A stretch of DNA of 62,948 bases, the filler included, from Licmophora abbreviata (lineage: Eukaryota), in the NCBI GenBank assembly GCA_900291995.1. It is 17 parts of 17 records of this genome, joined end to end, with 100 filler letters (N's around TTAATTAATTAA, not from the genome) between each part and the next. Parts side by side here need not be neighbours in the genome. Positions count along the whole stretch, not along the records: positions 1 to 17,041 come from OLMU01003440.1; 16 more parts are not named here. One strand, 5' to 3'. A program made the position numbers and the translations under genes. Each line of letters begins with the position of its first letter. The stretch's first letter is position 1. Under the pieces are notes generated by a model. The model searched no databases, was not told where the DNA came from, and saw only the letters and a list, made by a program, of their open reading frames with translations. Shown here one piece after another: positions 13,247-45,187 of the stretch.

Positions 13247-14647
13247 ATGATGAAAGGAGCGACTGCGAATGCAACGGGCAGAGCATCCCCTGATGCGGTT
13301 GTCGATTTTTGTCTTAGCTCGGCGAGCAAGACGACATTCCTGAGCTCCACTCCCGCAAGACACACCACTACATGGGCCACGGCGACGAAGCGACTATTCT
13401 TGGCAACTCTGTGTATCGCTCTCTACCTCTACGTGGTTATCAATCGACCGCAACAGATACTGGAACGATATTTACAAGAATCTGTAGATCAGTCGCTGTG
13501 GTACCAGCTGAAGCAAGCAAGAGCGCCATCCCTTATCCTGTCGCATCGATACCTAGTGTTTGTTCCTTTTGGTCCAGGACAAGGGACAGGAAACATCATG
13601 CATGGATTGCTGGCTGCACATTTGCTGGGACTCGAATTTGATCGGATAGTCTGTGTCTCGTCGAATTACACAGAATTTCATTGGGCCTTTGAATGGACTC
13701 CTAGCATCAGCAACAACCACGCCTTGCAGGCGTGTCCAACTTTGCCGCAATACGACGAGACGCCAGATCACTCCAACACAATTGAACTCGTCAGTTACCG
13801 TCCACCGCCGCCGAATGAGCGTGTCTTACAGCAGCGACTTCTTTCCAATACGACGGTGCTCTATTACTTTGGCAATACTTATCCGCGATGGCCAGCGACC
13901 ATCCCGCGAGGCCTATTCTTCCAGTACTACCGACCGACAAGAGCGTTGCAAGCCTTGCTACCATCATCGTTGCCTTCCATCGTGGTGCATCTACGACAGG
14001 GCGACTCTTCTACCGATTCTCGCAAGGGACTGGACGAAGCCACGTTTCATGCCCTGGGGCGATACTTGCAGGAATACAATAGCGTCTCGTCGTCACGCAT
14101 GGATGACACGCATCCCTATCTGGTGACGAATCGCGTAGCATGGTACGAATGGTTCGCTACTCATTACGCCTGGCAACACCCTGACTGGCTGGTAGTGCGG
14201 CATTCAGCCTTTCATTCCACCTTGTGGGGGACGCGAGGCAGTGATGCCAGTCGTCGACCTGTCAGCCTTACGACGAAACACACCAATAAGACGAACGTAA
14301 ACGATTACGGGCAGGCACTCCAAATGTGGAGCGATTGGTACGTCTTGTTGAATGCACATTGCGTCGTACATACACATAGTGATTTCTCGCTGTCGGCCGT
14401 ACACTGGAACAATGTCAACAGTGCAACGATCGAGGGAGTCAACGTTAGTACGGGTCGACTGGAACTTGCAGAAGAGTTTTGGCGGCGTGACACAGACGAA
14501 CCACCACAAGATTACTTGGTCGATCGGAGTATGGAGCAACTACAAGTAAGTGAGCATGAACCCGATAGTCGATTGCCTACGCGAATACGAGATCTGTATC
14601 TTAGACAACAGGCGCGACGAAAGGCCGAGGATGCAGAAACACTGTAA
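13247..14647 (+). CDS. Type II membrane glycosyltransferase, fucosyltransferase-like (GT-B)
   Basis: Single N-terminal TM anchor. GQGTGNIMHG, VVHLRQGD and HSDFS correspond to the GxGN, HxRxGD and SxFS motifs of GDP-fucose transferases. Confidence 0.65.
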   Translation: MMKGATANATGRASPDAVVDFCLSSASKTTFLSSTPARHTTTWATATKRLFLATLCIALYLYVVINRPQQILERYLQESVDQSLWYQLKQARAPSLILSHRYLVFVPFGPGQGTGNIMHGLLAAHLLGLEFDRIVCVSSNYTEFHWAFEWTPSISNNHALQACPTLPQYDETPDHSNTIELVSYRPPPPNERVLQQRLLSNTTVLYYFGNTYPRWPATIPRGLFFQYYRPTRALQALLPSSLPSIVVHLRQGDSSTDSRKGLDEATFHALGRYLQEYNSVSSSRMDDTHPYLVTNRVAWYEWFATHYAWQHPDWLVVRHSAFHSTLWGTRGSDASRRPVSLTTKHTNKTNVNDYGQALQMWSDWYVLLNAHCVVHTHSDFSLSAVHWNNVNSATIEGVNVSTGRLELAEEFWRRDTDEPPQDYLVDRSMEQLQVSEHEPDSRLPTRIRDLYLRQQARRKAEDAETL

Positions 14648-15213
14648 GTGCAAAATCGACGCTTATGTACTCTCTCTAGAGGAGAGAGAGCGATATAGCT
14701 CTACTAGCTAGTAGTGCCTACTCATAAAGACTAGCGACCCTTCGATTAACTATCAGGTATGCGTTGGCAATTGATCAAGTCGAAAGCCGACATGCTTGAG
14801 ACTACCTCTAGTTAGTCTAGCTACCAAATGCTCAATCGTACCAGGTACCTCGGAGATAGACGTGCCGTAACGGGTATAGACTATTCGCACTAGTAGAGGT
14901 ATGATACTCATCGTCTCTCTCTCTCTCTCTATTCTACGGTAAGTCGGCTATTCTTGATTGTCTCTTAGGTACGGTTTAGGCCAATCAGAGTCCTCGGTCG
15001 CCTGTACGCACAAAAGGTGTTATGAGCAGATGCCGATCCACGTCATCAATACTTAAGGAAAGGACAACTCGCTGACACCATTGCGTCAGAAACGCGCTGG
15101 TCGAGACACATCCAATCGCGAATTCAAAAGATGCCGGAAGATCGCCAGCATCATGATGGTCGAACATCATCACAAGCCCCCCCAGAACAAATACCGAAAG
15201 TCTTCCTATCGCG

Positions 15214-15596
15214 ATGCTTTCTCGTCTCCTCTCTGTGATTGTTTTGCTGACCATGGCTGCTGGCATTTTGGTTGGCGCCGCCAAATCGCCCAAACCGTCG
15301 AAGGCCTTTGTCGAGACGTTCCCCATTCGGAACTCGTCCACAGGTCTTCCTGGTTTCGTCTATCATCAGAAGGACATCAAGACGGTGTCAAATAAAAAGG
15401 ATGGGAAGCTCAAGAACGGTAAGCAGACATAGGCTGCAGCTTTTACTTTTCCAATAGCATGTGTCTCTTCCATTCTCAAATCAACGCCCTCGTCGTCTAT
15501 ACCTCTGTGTTTCTTGCAGGTGGCATTTCAAACTCCAGGCGAAAGTTTTCTCGTCCCATGGCCAGTGGGACGTTTGCTGCGCATCATTATGATTAG
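15214..15596 (+). CDS. Small secreted precursor protein A (93 aa); intron 15419-15519
   Basis: Signal peptide MLSRLLSVIVLLTMAAGILVGA. Phase-1 GTAAGC...TTGCAG intron. Exon 2 reads GGISNSRRKFSRPMASGTFAAHHYD*. Paralogous to gene B. Confidence 0.75.
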
Positions 15597-16281
15597 GACA
15601 CCAGTTCTCGTCATCCATACGATGCCTCATGGTTTGTAAATAGACGGCGGACACAGATAGATCGAGTTCGGCCCCCCTTTTTCATTGAGTCTCAGCTTCG
15701 CCCTTGTCATCACTCACCAAAGTCACCGACAGCACCTCCAAGTCAATTTCTCGTTAGACGGACCAACATTCACTATCATGATATACCAGAGAGACACCTT
15801 GTAACAAATAACCCGGTATTTTTATTACTTCTGTACTTGATCATCGCTTCGTTGCGATGACGACCTCAATTGATTGTGTAGCATATTCTTACTATGGGCT
15901 AGTTATAGTAAGTCGACTACTGCCTTCTAGCGCATTTAGCAATACGGAGGCAATCACCGTGAAGTATGTGCCTACATAGCTTATGTCTAACAGTCAACCT
16001 AAGCCTACAAGGCGACCACTCCACGATAACAAAGAGCGTCATTGGCCTCTTGTAGGGACATGGCGAACAGGTTGGTTTAGCGGCTGTCGTTCAAGACACC
16101 GAAGAGCCCCACTGACAGAAGTTCGCTTATGTATATGACGTCATGTTGACACCAATTTGCGCGCCTGCCGAAAGACATCGCTTTCAACTTCAAGAGCCAT
16201 TAGATGAGAAGCGCGAAGCCACAAAAGCGATCACGATCACTTTTTCCCACAAAGAAGTTGAGCAAGAACCACTTCCAAACA

Positions 16282-16693
16282 ATGCAAAGACTCATTTTCA
16301 CCCTTTTGTGCGTGGTCGTCATGTTTGCTCCGGTCGATTCGGACAAAGCGGCGAAGCAAGTAGGATTTGGGACGAAGGCCTTCTTGACAAACGCGGATCT
16401 CGTCCGGGACAAGTCTACGGCACTTCACTCATCAACAGGACTGTCGGGGATGAGCCATCACTCTAAGAGCGTTGCGGAAGTCTCTCTTAAGAAGTGCAAA
16501 GATGTGGGAACAGGTAAGTGAGCAGATGGAGAGAAAGTAGGCCCCTCGACGAGATGCGCTTGGTCTCAAGATGCGTAGGATTCATATTCAAATTTCACCG
16601 TTCAACTTTCGAACAGGTGACATAACCCACTCAAGGAGGTCGTTTCGAAAGAGTTCACATCCATACGCCAGTGGAACATTCACTGGTCAGTAG
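16282..16693 (+). CDS. Small secreted precursor protein B (102 aa); intron 16514-16616
   Basis: Signal peptide MQRLIFTLLCVVVMFAPVDS. Phase-1 GTAAGT...ACAG intron at the homologous position. Exon 2 reads GDITHSRRSFRKSSHPYASGTFTGQ*. Confidence 0.75.
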
Positions 16694-17041
16694 GGACGAC
16701 CGGACACTCGCCCATGGAATATCTTCTGAAGACCGTCGATAGACACAATTGTTGATGTCAAGATAGATCTGGTGCTTAGATACAATGTACTGATACACTT
16801 AAGGCCTAGTAAATATACAAATCTCGCTGATGCAGCAAAGGCGGCGTGATATATTGGACGTACTCTGCGCTCACTAAGCCCAGCGCGTTGTACGTTGGGT
16901 ACATCAGCTCATCGATGGATCAAGCGCCTGGCGCACTCTTCTGACTTTTCTGCCCGAAGCGAAAGTTTCCGAAGACTCGTTTCTTGTTGTCACTTCCGAG
17001 CTTGACAGTTGGAGTACTCTGGGTTCGATTCTTGAATTTAT

Positions 17042-17141
17042 NNNNNNNNNNNNNNNNNNNNNNNNNNNNNNNNNNNNNNNNNNNNTTAATTAATTAANNN
17101 NNNNNNNNNNNNNNNNNNNNNNNNNNNNNNNNNNNNNNNNN
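17042..17141. other. Artificial scaffold spacer N-TTAATTAATTAA-N, first of 16. Others at ~21911, 28131, 31832, 37528, 38755, 43109, 44695, 46071, 49377, 50578, 52296, 53694, 57512, 58711, 61519
   Basis: Identical 100-nt N blocks with a central six-frame stop linker. Some interrupt genes whose flanks overlap. Confidence 0.98.
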
Positions 17142-17320: not shown

Positions 17321-18986
17321 TTACATGTCAAACATATGAGTCAGCGACTTCCCGTTCAGCAACTCCAGTAGAACCGTACCCACCACGCCCAAAATAGCGA
17401 CACGTCCATTGATACGTTCCTTATCGCGCAATCGTTCCACCGCAAACAAGTCGCCTTCCGCTCCGACGCCACCCACTCCCTCGCTAATGCGCTCATCAAT
17501 CGTCTTGAGATCGGCGTCCCCACAATTGTTGGCAACACACGCCTCCGTCACAGTCTGTGCCGGTTCTTGTAAAGCGTCCATGACCATATCGGCCATATCA
17601 TCAAGAAAAGCCTGATCTGTGTTGAGAGCAGGACATCGTCTCCAATTGCTAATGCCGCTTTCTTCTGCTAGTTCACGATATTCAATATCAATCTCTTCCA
17701 AGGTTTCAATATGCTCACTGACAAACGAAATGGGCACCACGACCAGATTCTTGACTCCCTTTTGTCCAAGCTCCGGCAACACATCGTCCGTGTAGGGTCG
17801 TAGCCATTCAATCGGACCGACGCGTGATTGATAACTCAAGTGAATCTTAACGTTGGGATCGTCTGGCAGCGCTGCACCGATCCGTTCTACACACTCTTCA
17901 ATCTGCCGTTGGTACGGATCACCGGCATCGATATAACTGCGAGGCACACCATGTGCAGAGAACAATATATGCTTTGTAGGACCCTTCGGCGACGCCATAC
18001 TCAATTCCTCATTGGTAAAGGAGTCTAGCTCGTGTTGAATCAGATTGGCCATGGCTTTCACGTATCCTGGCCGATCGTACCAACACGGGACGACGGTATG
18101 AACCAGCTTGTTGGGACCATACCAGTCGACGTTCTTGGCAAATTGTTCTTGCAAGACACGAAGAGAAGAGCCTGACGTCGAAATACTGAACTGAGGATAC
18201 AGCGGGACGATGACCAAGGCCTGGATAGCATCGTTCCGAATTTGGTCAAGCGCTTCCTCGGTAAAGGGATGCCAGTATCGCATGCCAATGTATGTGGACA
18301 CGTCGAGTCCATGTTTTGACTTGACCGTTTCGCGGAGCAAGTCCGCCTGGGCATTGGAATATTTGAGAATGGGAGACCCCCCACCGATGGATTCGTATGC
18401 AGCCCGCGAGTTTGGGGGCCCGACGCTTGGAGATGAACAAGGCAATGGCATTTTGCAAGGGAGCAAGAGGACCGGGCAAACGAATAATGTCGGGATCGGC
18501 AAAGAGATTGTACAAGAAGCCTGTGCGGTGACGAGAGTGAATGAATGAATGAATGGGGTGAGATTGACATCAGATAGAAAGGAGCAAAGTATCCTAGCTT
18601 GACACGAGCTAGATCAAGGCTCTCTATGATCTAACGTCGGCGGGACGATAGAACGACACCACATGAGCAAACGCACCTTCGACGTCTTCTCCAGTTTCTG
18701 GCCCTCCAAGATTCAGCAGAAGGACTCCAACCTTGAACTGCTCGTCCTCTTGCGACACCTCCGTCAAGCCAGCGGTGTCAATCGGCAGTGCCGTAGCCGC
18801 CAGATGCCGTCGTGTGACCTCCGTCCGACAAACATTCGATTGGGAGGGAATCCAGCCATTTTGAGCTATTCTTGGACTTCTTACGAACGCATTGACACAT
18901 AATGGCCCTATCGATGAAAAGAGGGAATAGATAAAGAGCACACAAGGCCTCCGTCTCGCCGTGATGGCCGCCGTCGCTTTCCCCAT
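17321..18986 (-). CDS. hemH: Plastid ferrochelatase with C-terminal CAB/LHC motif; intron 18521-18676; apparent +1 frameshift near 18411
   Basis: GVLLLNLGGPE, FLYNLFADPDII, IGGGSP, MRYWHP, LYPQFS, FSAHG, YQSRVGP, FVSEHIETLEEID. Tail ERINGRVAILG. VNAF presequence cleavage motif. Confidence 0.95.
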
Positions 18987-21735: not shown

Positions 21736-24700
21736 TTAAGCAGCTATCTTGCCATGTTGCTTCCCTTTTGGTTTGCTTTTCCGAATTGTATCAGTCTTCC
21801 ACTTGCCTTCGTTCTTTCGTGCCGACTCTATGGAACGCGCTGCTCCGTAAGTATCCTCCCCACCTGAATGCCATGGATTCGCGTTGTTCCCATTTTTGTC
21901 TACTAACTTGNNNNNNNNNNNNNNNNNNNNNNNNNNNNNNNNNNNNNNNNNNNNTTAATTAATTAANNNNNNNNNNNNNNNNNNNNNNNNNNNNNNNNNN
22001 NNNNNNNNNNCGTTGTTCCCATTTTTGTCTACTAACTTGCCCCAGCGATTGCGCTTTGTTTCCTTGACTCGCAGTTCGACCGGCCCATGAGCAAAGACGC
22101 ACTTATTCTTTCGTCGCATCGGACAGAAGGTCCCTTCACTAACGTCCCAGTGATTACACAATCTCGTGCGAAATTTGGGATCCTCTGCGCAACGTTTCAC
22201 ACTATTGTCTTTCTTGCAAATGCTTGCCCCTGTGCGTCGTATCCACTCGTCATCTGATCGGATCCAACCTCTGCAGTTGAAGGTTTTGGCAGCTGCACTG
22301 CCTTCCCATATCACGATGTCTTCTGGAGCCACGTCTGCCGTTGTTGTGGTATCTACAAGGAATGCGGCCCGTTCTTTCGTTAACGCTTCGGCCGTGGAAA
22401 GACATTCAATCTCGTCGGATTCTTGAGTTTCAACCCCACCACCAACCTGTGGAATCTCCCACTCTGTAGAAAGCGTGGTTGCGTTCTCGTCAGGTATGTC
22501 CTTCGAGACGAGAGGCGACACAGCAGAGATCCCCACTGAACCCAGCGGCGTCTCTGGTTGAACTCGAGAGATTCTAGACTGGTCAATGAGTTCCTGGGGC
22601 TCCTCATCGACACTGATACTTGAAGTTTTCATGTGTCGCTTACCGTCAGTCGGAATACTATACTTGGCGGCGATGGGGTCGTCGGCTGTCGTAAACTCGC
22701 AGCAGATCGTGTAACAATGTAGCACAAGACGGGGAAATTGTGCTTCGAAATACGGCATCAGACCATCTGGGTTTGATCCAGTTCGATCCTTCACGCTACT
22801 GGGCAATTCATCGTAGTGATGATGCTTATTCCGTATCAATCGGAGACAGTCGCGAATTGAAGACGGGTCATACGTTCGGAAACGTGAGACATTGTCGAGC
22901 AAGTCGTCGTCGAGCTTCTTGTCCCAGGCGATACCGACGACCTGAGCGGCATTGCGTTCAATGACCAGTGAGTTTCCACTGAGGGGCAGGCCTTGCCCAG
23001 GATCTAGGTCAGCCCCTGATTCCAGTCGATCGGAAACGTCGCATAGAAACGCTAGTCGTCGATGCGCGCTCCAGAAGAATGGATGGTTGCAGACCTGCTC
23101 CGCTGTGGGGCGTGCTTTTGGAGCACGTTGGATCATTGAGGATACCAAGTGATGCGCATCCGGAGAGATCTTACTGAGGTCATCAATACAGGGATTGTTT
23201 TTCATTATGTTTGCTTCTCGTTCGTACCAGTCACCAAACGGATGCGTCCCTGGCACAAGAAAGCAGTAAAAAATACACCCCAGAGAGAATATGTCGGAAG
23301 ATCGACTCGTCCGTGTACTTGCGGCCGCGTCCAATGGCGAGGCATCAGCGAAAGAGTCTTGGCCTTGTGAGCTGCCTTCGGAAGGAGTGGAGCTTACATC
23401 GAGTGTCCATCGCTGTACCATGACTTCAGGAGCTTGCCAGCCGACGCTACCAGGGCCAGCACCGCCAAGAGTCGATCCGCCAGCGTTTGATACACCTGTC
23501 AGGGATGCATTCCCTAAAGTGCTCAAGCCAAAGCTACTCTGTCCTGCCAACTGCTTGCCAAGGCCCATATCAGAAATCTTGGCAATATAGTGGCCATTCT
23601 CAAAGTGTGCGTATATGCACTCATCGTTTTGTTCGCTGGAGTCTCGTCTTCCCAGCTCCTTTCGCTTCGTGCTGGACTTGGCCAAAAGAATATTGGCAGG
23701 CTTCAAGTCTCGATGTACAATACGCAGTCCATGAATATGTCTGATCCCAGAAGCGATCTGCAACAGCGTCGATCGCACTGCGTCCTTCGCAATGTCATGT
23801 TCACTGTGAAGACTTAATCTCCCGATCAGATCGTGTAGCGACAAGTCGCACAGCTCTAATGCCAAATATACAAAGTCGCCTCGGACCTCCTTGAGGAAGT
23901 AGCGAACGACATTTGGGTGTCCGTCACTTTCGATGAGAAGAGAAATCTCGCGATCGGCGCTTGCATGGTACGTCTTGAGCATTCTCTTGACAGCAACCAT
24001 TCGACCCTCCAACATGCCTCTGTAAACAACCGTCCCATGTCCTCCATAACCAAGGACTTCTTCCGTGACCTGTATCACGCCAACATCTCGGATAACCGCC
24101 CCGGAGCTGTCTAGTGATAGCATTTTGCTTGTTGCATCTTCAAGGCGACCGGCAACCGTTTGTCGGTTTTGACGCTGGCGTCTTCCAAGCTCAAATGATA
24201 AGAAAAACAGCAGTATCATTGTTGAGGGAAGCCATGACGCCATGATACGAAAGAACGCTCGCGATTTCTTTCGATTCTGCAAGTCCTGCATATCTTCCTG
24301 CGCAACGTAACCAAGTTGCGGATGGTATTGAATGGTGACTGCGCCATTCTGATTGAGGGCAAGTGCATTTTCGCCTCCGAGAAAAGACTCTTGTTGTGAC
24401 CGCCCCCCTAAGAGGTCAAGATTGTGAAAGGGACCCACGAGACAACCTGGGAAACCAGGGCTTGTCGGGTTGCAAGTTCGTTTTCGCTTGTCAGCGCCAG
24501 CACGCGAGTGGGCTGAGACATCCTGGACGTGAGATGAAGCGTGTCGACCAGCCAAAGCGGCAACATCAGTATGCATTGTCGACACGAGAGCCGATGACGA
24601 GGATGCTGCTGCGGTGTGTTGGTGCGGCAGGCCCAGCGGATGGGTGTGCTTGGAGGCTCGACTGATATCTCGTCTTCCAAGAGGCATGGCGTACAGCTGA

Positions 24701-27918: not shown

Positions 27919-29819
27919 CTACTGCTGTTGCTCGGCGTGGAGGGTAATGCGATCGTCGATACGGAGAATCGTAATGGCCGCCTCCGTGGCGAATCGTAAA
28001 CTCTTGATCTTTGACATGGCAGGTTCGACAACACCGGCGGCGATATTATCCCGTATTGTGCCGTCAATCAAGTCCAGCCCATAGTACTTGAGGGATTCGT
28101 CTTCTCCATCCTTTTGACTTTTCGCATGGANNNNNNNNNNNNNNNNNNNNNNNNNNNNNNNNNNNNNNNNNNNNTTAATTAATTAANNNNNNNNNNNNNN
28201 NNNNNNNNNNNNNNNNNNNNNNNNNNNNNNCCGAACGGAGTCGAGCCACTAGCTCGGAGCTGTCCTTGGCTGCATTCACGGCGAGCGTCTTGGGGATCAC
28301 CAAGAGTGCATCAGCATACTCTTGAATCGCAAGCTGCTCGCGCGTGTCGAGCGTCGTCGCATACTCCTCGAGATACACGGACAAAGCCGCTTCCACAGCT
28401 CCTCCACCAGGAACGAGCGTGCTGGATTCCAACATGCGTTTGACGACACACAGAGAATCATGCAAGGCACGGTCCATCTCGTCTAGCATGTACTCGTTGG
28501 CACCCCGAAGCACAATCGTGGACGCTCCATGACCTTGACAGCCATACACGTACAGCATTTCCCCATCACCCACACGCACTTCTCTCACCGCCTCGCACGT
28601 TCCGATACACTCGGTATCAAACGACTCGTTTCCTTCCATATCGGCCATCGTCACCACTACCTTGCCACCCGTTGCCTTCGCGAGACGCTTCAAGTCATCC
28701 TTGTCACAACGGCGAGCACAAATGACTCCTGCTTCCACAAAATACTTCATGCAGGTGTCATCCACTCCCTTGGTAGTCAGTACGACTTTGACTCCCGTAT
28801 TGAGGATCTTTTGAATACGCTCTTTGGTAATATCCAATTCCCGCTGGCGAATGTTTTCGATTTCGGCAGGATCCGTCACGGTAATTTGAACACCGAGTCC
28901 CATACGATGACGCTGCAAGTTCATATCCAACATGGCAATCCTGACATTACCGCCTTCGACAAAAGTGGGCATGCCTTGGGCAGCGCGTGTGGCATTCAAG
29001 GCGAAACCTCCAGATACCAAGTGAGACTCAGCAGAACTCTTGCCGTGGGCCTTGAGAATGTGAATGGCGCTAAGAGGGTACTTGTACTTGCCTCCGGCTG
29101 CAGCGCTCTTCATTTGGACGGATTTGACGGCGTCCACCGCGAGTTTTGCAAAGAAATCGGAATCTGTTCCGATAATCTTGCTTGACATGCTCGTCTTGGC
29201 CGCTTGCAAGAGATGTTCGTCCCCAAGTTGAGATACCTGTAGAACCATGGTCTGTTTGAGATAGGCGACAGCAGCTTTGAGCGCGACACGGTATCCAGCG
29301 AGAATGGTGGTGGGGTGAAGTCCCTGCTTGACGAGTTCATTGCCTCGCTTGAGTAGTTCGGCGGCAATGAGGACGACCGACGTGGTCCCATCTCCGACTT
29401 CTTGATCTTGCAGTTGGGCCAGATCAACCAAGACACGCGCAGCAGGATGTTCGACTTCGAGCTGTTGAAGAATGGTGGCGCCGTCGTTGGTAATGGTCAC
29501 GTCGCCGATATCGTCCACGAGCATCTTGTCCAAGCCGACGGGACCGAGCGACGTCTTGACAATATTGGCCACAGCCACGGCGGCGGTCACGTTACCAGTT
29601 CGGACATCCTCTCCCGATTCTCGAGAGCCATTGAAAAACTAAGTCGATAGTAAGAGAGAGAAGGGGCGTGCCGGTGAGATACTGTAACTTCGTTGAGCGC
29701 AAAGCAGCCAAACAAGGTTTCGGGAGTGCCGCGGCTCCTTTCATTTTTTCAATTTTAGACAACACGCACGAACTCATCCATACACGTACCAGTCCAGTTC
29801 CAGAAGATTGAGACTCCAT
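27919..29819 (-). CDS. CCT1: T-complex protein 1 subunit alpha; intron 29639-29789; spans spacer 28131-28230
   Basis: [44 protein letters not shown]-terminal [27 protein letters not shown] lies beyond the gap. Confidence 0.96.
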
Positions 29820-42752: not shown

Positions 42753-43822
42753 TCGCTGTCAACTTTGATCCCCGTATGAAGTACAGCTTGTACCGAGATT
42801 TCGTGTCTGTAATCAACTAGCATTTCTTGTGAACTTGTTCTCACTGTGATACGCAAATGTGACCTCAATGGTTTCCTCATGAGGTGCGAACATATCTCTA
42901 GCTAGAGTCGGAAACGGAGGCAACACGGTGTCTGCTACATGTCATGCCAAACTCCGCCACAACACTCCAAAATCTACCTTACGACGGCATTCTACGAGAG
43001 GCATCCCAAATCGCATTTGTGTATCGCCATTGATTCTTGATCACCTACGTTTCGCAAGAGACGCTATGCCGGTATTGGTACGACACGACGTTCATGTCGA
43101 GACATGGTNNNNNNNNNNNNNNNNNNNNNNNNNNNNNNNNNNNNNNNNNNNNTTAATTAATTAANNNNNNNNNNNNNNNNNNNNNNNNNNNNNNNNNNNN
43201 NNNNNNNNCATCGAAAGTATGCATCCAAGCAGTTTCGCCTCAGGCAATTGACGTTTGCGGAACTGGAAGAAGAGAGACGGAGAGAGCTAAGGCAAACATG
43301 GCTGCGGAGTACGATCGAATCATGGATAAGCAGACCCAAGCGTGAGCAGCGATACGTTCGGAAAGGGGCACCGGGGCAATGAATGATCATGAATGATGAA
43401 CGATACATGAGAAAGCGAGTGACAAGCCATTCCCACAGAGAGGATAAATGGCGATAAAAGTTTGGTTTACAGAGCTCTGACATCTGTATCGTCGTAATGG
43501 ATCTTAGACTTGTCGAAAAAGCAACCTGGGTTGTCGCTCCATGAAAGAGGGTCCGACTTGACCCGTGATGTGAAGCTTGACGCGAAAATGGATTCAAAAT
43601 GTCTCTTGAATGATCTCTTCGACTCAGAAATATCTCCGCGCGCGAGCACACAACATGACATTATGTCGTCGTCGCCGCGATGCCGTGCGATCATGGCATA
43701 TCATGATGGCGCCGTGTACGAGTAGACCTGTAAACTACGGCCGCCCCGAGAATCATTTCGCTCGGCTAATTCGTTGCCATCTTTCCAGTTTGAGGCTATA
43801 AAGGGTCGTATCGAGTGAACTA

Positions 43823-45187
43823 ATGAGATGGAATCGCGATAAATCTCTCCGTCTGAGCGCTGCCGCGCTGCGTACAGTCGGTGGGTCAAGGATACGAGGC
43901 GACAGCAGACTCATCCTGTCACCAAAGCAGCATTCGTCTCCGTCTCCCGCCACCGCTACAACGGTGGAAGGAGACGCCCCGAGAGACCGGTGGCGAGCGG
44001 GCGACCTTTCGACTCCGCCAAGGCCGATTTTCCCTTGGCGGCATGATCCGAACCCACTGCCTCGTCTTGTGGGAGAACACGCAAAGCGAGGGGGCATACT
44101 GGGACCTGATCATCCGATTCTATCTCCAACAGAAACAACGGTGATATCGGCCATTTGCTCGCAATTTTGTGGTTATCTTCTTAATATCCCATGGTATGAG
44201 CGCTTGCTTACCTCGGGCTGGAAACAAGAGTTGGCGGAAGCAAGTGGGTGGGCGTTTGCCCAGGCTGTCGCAGGAGTGTTGTCTAATACGTACCGAGGTG
44301 AGTTTGACTCAATTGAGACAAGAGAGACATGATTTGAAGACACGTCAGTCTCTTACAGCATACAATTTGTCGCTCCAGTCCCCTTTGACGGCATCATGAA
44401 GAACGCCGACACAGAGAAAGATGCCGACTTGCAAAACTCTGTCAATTTCGAGCACACAACAAGCGCTCGAAAGCTGGAAGACGCAAACGCTCCATTTCCA
44501 CAAGCAGACAACATGATGGAGGAGAAGCTCATCAGCTTGTACGAAGCGGCACATGATTCGGGCAAGGAGCAGATGCTCATTCAGCTACTGACCAGACCGG
44601 TTTCGTCGCGACTTGTCAGTCTTTACCCGATTCCCTGCCTGACACGCAAAACTGTGAAGGAAAATCCTGCTCTTCAGCGTACGTATCACAATATNNNNNN
44701 NNNNNNNNNNNNNNNNNNNNNNNNNNNNNNNNNNNNNNTTAATTAATTAANNNNNNNNNNNNNNNNNNNNNNNNNNNNNNNNNNNNNNNNNNNNTATCAC
44801 AATATGCTATCTCAGTTGCAAGAAAAAGAAGAGGAACTAGGACGCGTGCTCAGCCACGTGGAAATAAGTCAATTTGTATCATATCGAATGATGGATCTAG
44901 CGAGAGAGCGGTTCGAGTTGCACCCCGACGGCTATGGACTGCTTGAGCATACGATAGTAGCACAGGTACTTGTGCACTGTGATGAAGTGTTTGGCGTAAA
45001 AGATCTCTTGACAGATAAGATGGTGCAGGGCGACGGCCTCCGACGAATCGTGCCACATCTGATACGCCTCGAAATGGATGGCCAGTCGCGATTCGAGCGT
45101 TCAAGATCATCAGCGACGCACCACCTGGGCTCGTGGATCATAACAGATTGGGACGATTTGCTAGGGGGTAACGTATGGCTCGGATAG
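43823..45187 (+). CDS. Putative mitochondrial protein with possible Tim44-like C-terminal domain; intron 44298-44378; spans spacer 44695-44794
   Basis: Arg-rich presequence. GTGAGT...CCAG intron joins ORFs 43823 and 44396. Contig ends overlap (tatcacaata). C-terminal AQVLVHCDEVF...H..RLE...WIITDWD resembles Tim44-type folds (inference). Confidence 0.6.

Follow-up and report, generated by a model that had tools for sequence, protein, structure and literature searches.

Two short open reading frames (ORFs) that follow one another on a contig of Licmophora abbreviata (assembly GCA_900291995.1) raise the question of whether they belong to real, spliced genes and, if so, what kind of protein these genes encode. 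The window, that is, the whole stretch of DNA that was analysed, has 62,948 bases and consists of 17 contig pieces chained by 16 linkers of the form N44-TTAATTAATTAA-N44 (17042-17141, 21911-22010 and 28131-28230, plus 13 more). The two genes, here called A and B, both lie on the first contig piece (1-17041). An earlier note on this DNA had read them as a tandem pair of secreted pre-pro-peptide genes of an undescribed diatom family. The comparisons reported here suggest that A and B are probably real genes whose products enter the secretory pathway, and that they would represent a new sequence family, lineage-restricted and composed of small, basic, nearly Cys-free, disordered proteins. The predicted gene models are as follows.

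15214..15418, + strand: gene A exon 1, 205 nucleotides (nt), 68 codons and 1 base, with the ATG at 15214
15419..15519, + strand: gene A intron, 101 nt, phase 1, GTAAGC...TTGCAG, donor word GTAAGCAG
15520..15596, + strand: gene A exon 2, 77 nt including the stop
15534-15542, + strand: gene A Ser-Arg-Arg (S-R-R) codons, in exon 2
15543-15593, + strand: gene A C-terminal segment, 17 codons, directly after S-R-R
16282..16513, + strand: gene B exon 1, 232 nt, 77 codons and 1 base, with the ATG at 16282
16514..16616, + strand: gene B intron, 103 nt, phase 1, GTAAGT...GAACAG
16617..16693, + strand: gene B exon 2, 77 nt including the stop
16631-16639, + strand: gene B S-R-R codons, in exon 2
16640-16690, + strand: gene B C-terminal segment, 17 codons, directly after S-R-R

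Translation of the joined exons gives predicted products of 93 amino acids (aa) for A and 102 aa for B, and the coordinates of the earlier note were confirmed on the sequence, with two tandem genes, each having a second exon of 77 nt and, at a matching position, a phase-1 intron (101 nt in A, 103 nt in B). The introns are in phase 1 because each exon-1 length leaves one base over, and both predicted introns are of the GT-AG type and interrupt a Gly codon, split as G and GT, at a matching place in A and B. The equal length of the second exons arises by coincidence, A having a 3-codon gap and then a stop 3 codons later, and there is no strict register. The donor word of the gene A intron, GTAAGCAG, is also that of a homology-proven intron elsewhere on this contig piece, in the gene for an ABC1 kinase (1370-1462, + strand, 93 nt, acceptor CAG); when three relatives are aligned to that gene, the intron shows up as a gap of 31 residues that contains in-frame stops. 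Upstream of gene A, an in-frame stop lies 60 nt before the ATG, and none of the upstream ATGs is in frame. An alternative ORF of 80 aa (15153-15395) overlaps the gene A start. Relative to the window, a contig from one public sequencing run (X4) is without 13 bases at 15156, a strain-level indel in the 5' region of gene A, and because this indel frameshifts the alternative 80-aa ORF, it agrees with 15214 as the start. The first contig piece runs only 348 nt past gene B, so that further copies downstream are possible and the term 'pair' is a lower bound.

To compare the two copies, the products were aligned by BLASTP and tblastn, and the corresponding DNA segments of A and B were aligned and scored against 300 shuffles each. 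The exon-1 products shared 14 of 31 residues (E 2e-6), and each spliced product, searched against the whole window, matched only the other copy (E 7e-5 and 1e-4). The DNA likeness between A and B was concentrated in the exons, with a z-score of 8.7 for exon 2 (0/300 shuffles reaching the score) and 3.9 for exon 1 (2/300), as against 2.5 for the intron (8/300), 0.0 for the 100 nt before the ATG (152/300) and 0.9 for the 100 nt after the stop (60/300). The same residue was found in 34 of the 88 aligned codons, 20 of these 34 being written with different codons, and in exon 2 the corresponding counts were 13 of 22 and 8 of 13. The proportion of differing synonymous sites (pS) was 0.77 overall, which is saturated, and that of differing non-synonymous sites (pN) was 0.41; in exon 2 the values were 0.68 and 0.26, giving a ratio of non-synonymous to synonymous substitution rates (dN/dS) of about 0.18. 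This ratio, which the earlier note had put forward as a check, points to purifying selection on the exon-2 motif. In the predicted frame, 28 of 61 residues were identical over four ungapped blocks, whereas the five alternative frames gave between 13/57 and 22/57, and the mismatches by codon position numbered 28/20/39, an excess at position 3 (chi-square p 0.04).

Because the synonymous sites are saturated, the duplication is old, and on sequence grounds A and B are anciently duplicated paralogues. The persistence of the exon-1 core and the exon-2 tail in the predicted frame despite saturated silent sites suggests that purifying selection acts on the protein, and argues for spliced protein-coding genes under such selection. 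The splice model of A and B is strongly implied by these comparisons, since the constraint crosses the predicted junction in the phase that the splice would give.

The four queries compared with Pfam-A (the exon-1 ORF and the exon-2 frame of each gene) matched 0 families above the gathering score. One match, to ATP19, was at chance level (E 0.11; 13.2 bits, cutoff 27) and was rejected. The large protein-library searches used the exon-1 products only, and the tail was searched as a DNA pattern only. A profile of the two exon-1 products, run against 1,835,955,588 representatives, gave four matches at E <= 1e-3, one of which was a true relative. This sequence, P0004, is an 83-aa singleton ORF on a 659-nt metagenome contig from ENA, matching profile positions 6-74 over its residues 2-72 (E 3.2e-7); P0004 can be aligned from its start Met onward as far as exon 1 extends, and is intermediate between A and B. 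The other three were rejected, P0003 and P0006 as tandem-repeat hypothetical proteins of fish genomes whose score was summed from many weak stretches, and P0005 as a repeat ORF scoring in the same way. Searches with gene B exon 1 against 5.8 billion clusters gave no candidate relative, the three-member alignment returned P0004 alone among 540 candidates, and an Atlas feature search with P0004 gave no usable match. In metagenome contigs, 216 stretches matched the exon-1 patterns and 0 were confirmed. Among the rejected candidates were three phage-like viral contigs, L001-L003 (3001-3204), which carry the word H-S-S-T-G-L-S-G itself, antisense to a 607-aa ORF; these matches show that short-motif scans yield false positives. 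With no usable Pfam match and one true relative among 1.84 billion representatives, the description of the family as undescribed in the earlier note stands, and the same searches suggest that it is either very narrow or very fast-evolving, with the caveat that many annotation pipelines discard ORFs under 100 aa.

Across A, B and P0004, 14 alignment columns were invariant. The motif island common to all three lies in exon 1 and consists of K-A-F followed by [R/H]-[N/H]-S-S-T-G-L-[S/P]-G. In gene A these are present as K-A-F and R-N-S-S-T-G-L-P-G-F, with a Lys-rich end to the exon, and in gene B as K-A-A-K-x-V-G-F-G-x-K-A-F and H-S-S-T-G-L-S-G. The exon-2 tail common to A and B reads G-x-I-x-x-S-R-R-x-F ... 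P-x-A-S-G-T-F. Within it, S-R-R is invariant in both genes and stands directly before the conserved end, with exactly 17 residues following in each. A degenerate pattern combining the acceptor with this tail was found at exactly two sites in the 62,948 bases, those of A and B, against 0.00 expected. The shared motifs were in large part as the earlier note had listed them, including K-A-F, S-S-T-G-L-x-G and the tail; the spacing after S-S-T-G-L-x-G has to be corrected, since the conserved His follows the Gly after three residues rather than two (G-x3-H-x-K). A further stretch of the window (43563-43637, - strand, on the piece 43209-44694) matched the first 11 positions of the tail profile as G-D-I-S-x-S-K-R-S-F-K with 13.5 bits (E 0.006 in the window), compared with 10.6 bits for the best of 20 shuffled windows and 6.8 bits for the next real match. 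It is either a chance match or a remote relative of the motif, and is without an acceptor or signal and has a frame that runs on; it was not counted as a third copy.

The products of A and B are predicted to begin with a signal-like N-terminus (residues 1-22 in A and about 1-20 in B), in agreement with the earlier note. The maxima of Kyte-Doolittle hydrophobicity over 11 residues were 2.75 (A), 3.18 (B) and 2.72 (P0004), all within residues 4-15, and beyond residue 30 no window rose above 1.2 in any of the three. Sites fitting the -3/-1 rule, with small residues at these positions, were found at residues 21-23 (A), 20 (B) and 16-20 (P0004), and a Met-x-Arg-Leu start was aligned in all three members. 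It appears rather likely that this segment is a cleavable signal for the endoplasmic reticulum (ER), which would make the products secretory and place their action outside the cell or in the wall. The mature parts are rich in Lys, Ser and Gly, have isoelectric points (pI) of 10.5 (A), 10.0 (B) and 10.2 (P0004) and contain 0, 1 and 0 Cys, respectively. Mature A has 71 residues with 10 Lys and 9 Ser, and mature B has 83 residues with 9 Lys and 14 Ser. An N-x-S sequon on the exon-1 island is present in A and P0004 and absent in B. An AlphaFold model of exon 1 built with the three sequences had a mean predicted local distance difference test (pLDDT) score of 55 and showed no fold, only a helix at residues 2-15 and a short helix at 64-74; the Atlas model of P0004 had a pLDDT of 0.43, a confidence at which structure comparisons are meaningless. 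The products of A and B are accordingly predicted by these models to be intrinsically disordered.

For the mode of action, the earlier note had proposed the layout of a pre-pro-peptide, and the overall plan of the sequences is consistent with this: short products of 93 and 102 aa, an invariant Ser-Arg-Arg with 17 residues after it and an exon 2 with 13 of 22 identical residues against 34 of 88 overall. A protease of the secretory pathway specific for basic residues would cut at the invariant Ser-Arg-Arg, and this cut would free the conserved 17-residue C-terminal segment with its P-x-A-S-G-T-F core. The exon-1 island (K-A-F ... S-S-T-G-L-x-G) would then be a recognition or modification site, or a second active segment. 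Since the invariant basic pair directly precedes the conserved end, this precursor model is the most economical account; even so, maturation of A and B in this manner is a tentative proposal that we hold to be possible and rather doubtful. In the excerpted text of PMC13149256, diatom genomes are annotated with genes for subtilisin/kexin-type convertases. A signalling or defence role for the products would be a further step. In its fullest form, A and B would be the first diatom genes for a secreted peptide signal that is made on ribosomes and processed by a convertase, a 17-residue cue for mating, density or defence, with two copies for two specificities and with expression tied together by shared promoter and 3' words; we regard this extended proposal as improbable.

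Several points weigh against the reading of A and B as secreted precursors. The earlier note had taken the part between signal and tail as a variable pro-region, and the middle is indeed diverged; the island within it is, however, invariant in all three members, so that the C-terminal peptide is not the sole constrained part. With the family's most invariant motif in the supposed pro-region, the sequences fit an uncleaved protein as well as a precursor, and the intact product may work by way of short linear motifs. The outside relative P0004 is known from exon 1 only, the conservation of the tail rests on the A/B pair, and a scan of the metagenome contigs with the degenerate tail pattern returned 0 matches. 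The other di-basic pairs, K-K in both genes, are not kept in position, and cleavage at Arg-Arg would be carried over by analogy from other organisms. The signal-peptide call is based on hydrophobicity and the -3/-1 rule, and the hydrophobic run of gene A, at 19 residues, is long enough for a membrane anchor. Splicing and transcription of both genes are predictions from the DNA. Gene A is preceded by three out-of-frame ATGs within 85 nt, and gene B has an in-frame ATG at 16204 (78 nt upstream), which would add a basic extension of 26 residues.

Three other explanations have to be set beside the secretory reading. The whole basic, Lys/Ser-rich disordered protein could be secreted and bind the silica frustule or extracellular polymers in the manner of silaffins, the islands then being modification or binding motifs. 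The signal-like N-terminus, the pI of about 10 and the Lys- and Ser-rich mature parts would all be expected of such a wall protein, and the 5 Lys within 12 residues in gene A fit the 'pentalysine cluster' named in the excerpted text of PMC9650480. This cluster is found in only one of the three members (A 5, B 4 and P0004 3 Lys in 12-14 residues), however, and the RXL motif named in the same text is absent from all three (0 in A, B and P0004). Nor are there repeats or a likeness to any Pfam family, and the conserved parts differ from the Lys-rich parts, which makes a wall protein of this type unlikely. A residence within the endomembrane system or the periplastid space appears less probable still. 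Here the N-terminus, as signal or anchor, would direct the protein into the ER, the periplastidic compartment or a vesicle membrane, with the C-terminal motif as a sorting or interaction signal. The 19-residue run of gene A would suit an anchor, but a typical membrane span needs more residues than the hydrophobic cores of B (13 residues, L4 to A16) and P0004 provide. Behind the signal, the sequence is basic and rich in Ser and Thr, like transit-peptide-like sequences, and the excerpted text of PMC12136025 describes periplastid proteins without an aromatic +1 residue. Acidic residues (D-S-D-K) directly behind the signal of B are out of keeping with this, and no ER-retention-like C-terminus is seen in the sequences. 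Import into the plastid itself is disfavoured in that the ASAFind rule given there (F, Y, W or L at +1; PMC12136025) finds no match at the -3/-1 sites by the hydrophobic core, where the +1 residues are A, I, A, A and K in A, D in B, and A, V and N in P0004.

The least probable account, and to our judgement a very unlikely one, is that A and B are non-working genes, a duplicated stretch with chance or decaying ORFs whose introns are never spliced and which give no product. Such an account would draw on the short, low-complexity products, the ATGs upstream of both starts and the finding of no tail-bearing relative in the public data searched. Against it, 13 of 22 exon-2 residues and the 14 three-member columns are unchanged at saturation of the silent sites, and the pattern of identity is specific to the predicted frame. 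The splice-site pairs and the intron phase are likewise kept in introns whose sequence is nearly unalignable, and P0004 is an independent relative found elsewhere. In the DNA around A and B, two words recur at like positions.

15073..15080, + strand: upstream word TGACACCA, 141 nt before the gene A ATG
16147..16154, + strand: upstream word TGACACCA, 135 nt before the gene B ATG
15655..15663, + strand: downstream word AGATAGATC, 59 nt after the gene A stop
16761..16769, + strand: downstream word AGATAGATC, 68 nt after the gene B stop

The upstream word is present in four copies in the window, two of them at these like positions, and the downstream word in three copies against 0.37 expected, two of them behind genes A and B. 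Given the saturated silent sites, TGACACCA may be a shared promoter element and AGATAGATC a shared 3'-end element. Upstream of TGACACCA on the + strand, an ACGTCA word lies before gene A (15040-15045) and a palindromic TGACGTCA before gene B (16136-16143). TGACGT-type words are bZIP sites. The gap from the ACGTCA-type word to TGACACCA is 28 nt in A and 4 nt in B, and with this differing spacing the ACGTCA and TGACGTCA words may be due to chance.

Public sequencing runs were compared with the locus, and five of the nine shared a small fraction (0.07-0.17) of the locus words; no RNA runs were listed among the runs sharing them. From four runs, 13 contig pieces were placed on the locus, with 0 joints. 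Near-identical DNA was present in the contigs of three runs, two of which were marine metagenomes. Of the 14 listed substitutions and the one 13-nt indel, none fell inside the 197 coding bases covered by the three runs, which also covered about 1,009 non-coding bases. The variant-free coding bases are a weak population hint of constraint (binomial p about 0.08), and single contigs of low depth can err. Run X4, presumed to be RNA, covers only 15000-15183, 16109-16228 and 16620-16800, with adapter-like loose ends on some of its pieces; it is uninformative on splicing and expression, and no meaning attaches to the stretches it leaves uncovered.

The surrounding genes were used to characterize the host lineage. 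Besides A and B, the first contig piece encodes an ABC1 kinase, a Y_phosphatase3 protein, an Mpv17/PMP22 protein and several ORFs that belong to no family, and the next contig piece encodes a UCH hydrolase and a ferrochelatase. The two features discussed further are given below.

13247-14647, + strand: ORF of 466 aa, directly upstream of gene A
17324-18613, - strand: ferrochelatase (PF00762, E 1.4e-90), on the next contig piece

Because the window is made of joined contig pieces and is not one locus, the ferrochelatase and other genes across a linker need not adjoin A and B in the genome. The 466-aa ORF had no Pfam or PDB match. Its language-model (Atlas) neighbours were fucosyltransferase-like clusters (FUT8_N_cat, GT11, O-FucT and XG_FTase), the nearest of which is commonest in Bacillariophyta, and it has an N-terminal hydrophobic stretch and the word H-L-R-Q-G-D, which we take to resemble the H-x-R-x-x-D motif of fucosyltransferases. 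This likeness is a lead only. At the C-terminus of the ferrochelatase, a chlorophyll a/b-binding-like stretch scored just below the cutoff (PF00504, E 2e-4); judged by its sequence, a ferrochelatase with such a tail is the plastid-type enzyme of phototrophs. For the ABC1 fragment, among the proteins of 771-2200 aa covered by the search, the best named relative was from the diatom Cyclostephanos (45% identity) and the best overall an MMETSP transcript (48%). The source of the contig would therefore be a photosynthetic stramenopile, probably a diatom. The attribution to a diatom in the earlier note is in this sense probable, from the 45% diatom relative of ABC1 and the Bacillariophyta-rich cluster of the upstream ORF, and falls short of proof.

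According to the excerpted text of PMC8027222, what is known of chemical communication in diatoms mostly concerns small metabolites, diproline among them. The literature searched contained no account of a secreted peptide signal encoded by a diatom gene, which is no proof of absence. As an orphan family that is arranged in tandem, is clearly under purifying selection and has all parts of a precursor layout, A and B offer a concrete and cheap target, and their interest would rise sharply if spliced transcripts and the free C-terminal peptide were found. If the products were instead ordinary wall or surface proteins, they would be one more set of lineage-specific small secreted proteins, of local interest. 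The case also shows that proteins shorter than 100 aa whose second exon is short are missed by ORF-based and many automated gene calls.

The products of A and B resemble the pro-hormones and pheromone precursors of animals and fungi that are processed by kexin or furin, in that a signal-like N-terminus is followed by a pro-region and by paired basic residues before a conserved peptide. Kexin/furin-type convertases cut after paired basic residues. Unlike these precursors, A and B would each hold one peptide copy and are without a Gly-basic amidation signal and without a Cys framework.

The plant CLE, RGF/GLV/CLEL and IDA precursors provide a second comparison. In the excerpted texts of PMC4082320, PMC7162652, PMC4983112 and PMC7552357, these are described as proteins under about 120 aa in which an N-terminal signal peptide and a short, conserved C-terminal motif flank a middle part of low conservation; they are matured at basic sites by subtilases and belong to families that are often tandem and elusive to homology. 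A and B are likewise short and tandem, with a signal-like N-terminus, a diverged middle and a conserved C-terminal motif. They differ in having no sequence likeness to these families (0 Pfam matches), no Pro-rich, Tyr-sulfation or hydroxyproline-type core and their most invariant island in the 'pro-region'; the host is a stramenopile alga, and A and B are known from genes alone.

Among diatom systems, the silaffins are described in the excerpted texts of PMC9650480 and PMC3820600 as having an ER signal and giving small, basic, Lys/Ser-rich products through precursor proteolysis. The signal-like N-terminus, small size and basic, Lys/Ser-rich composition of A and B are similar, whereas the three-member family differs from silaffins in its RXL motifs (0/3), Lys clusters (1/3), lack of repeats and conserved motifs outside the Lys-rich parts. 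The diproline of Seminavis robusta is an extracellular diatom cue as well, a diketopiperazine whose synthesis the excerpted text of PMC8027222 tentatively ascribes to a cyclodipeptide synthase and which is not cut from a ribosomal precursor; the sex-inducing pheromones are described there as used in the form of culture filtrates. A and B, as putative ribosomal precursors, would differ from diproline in the origin of the cue.

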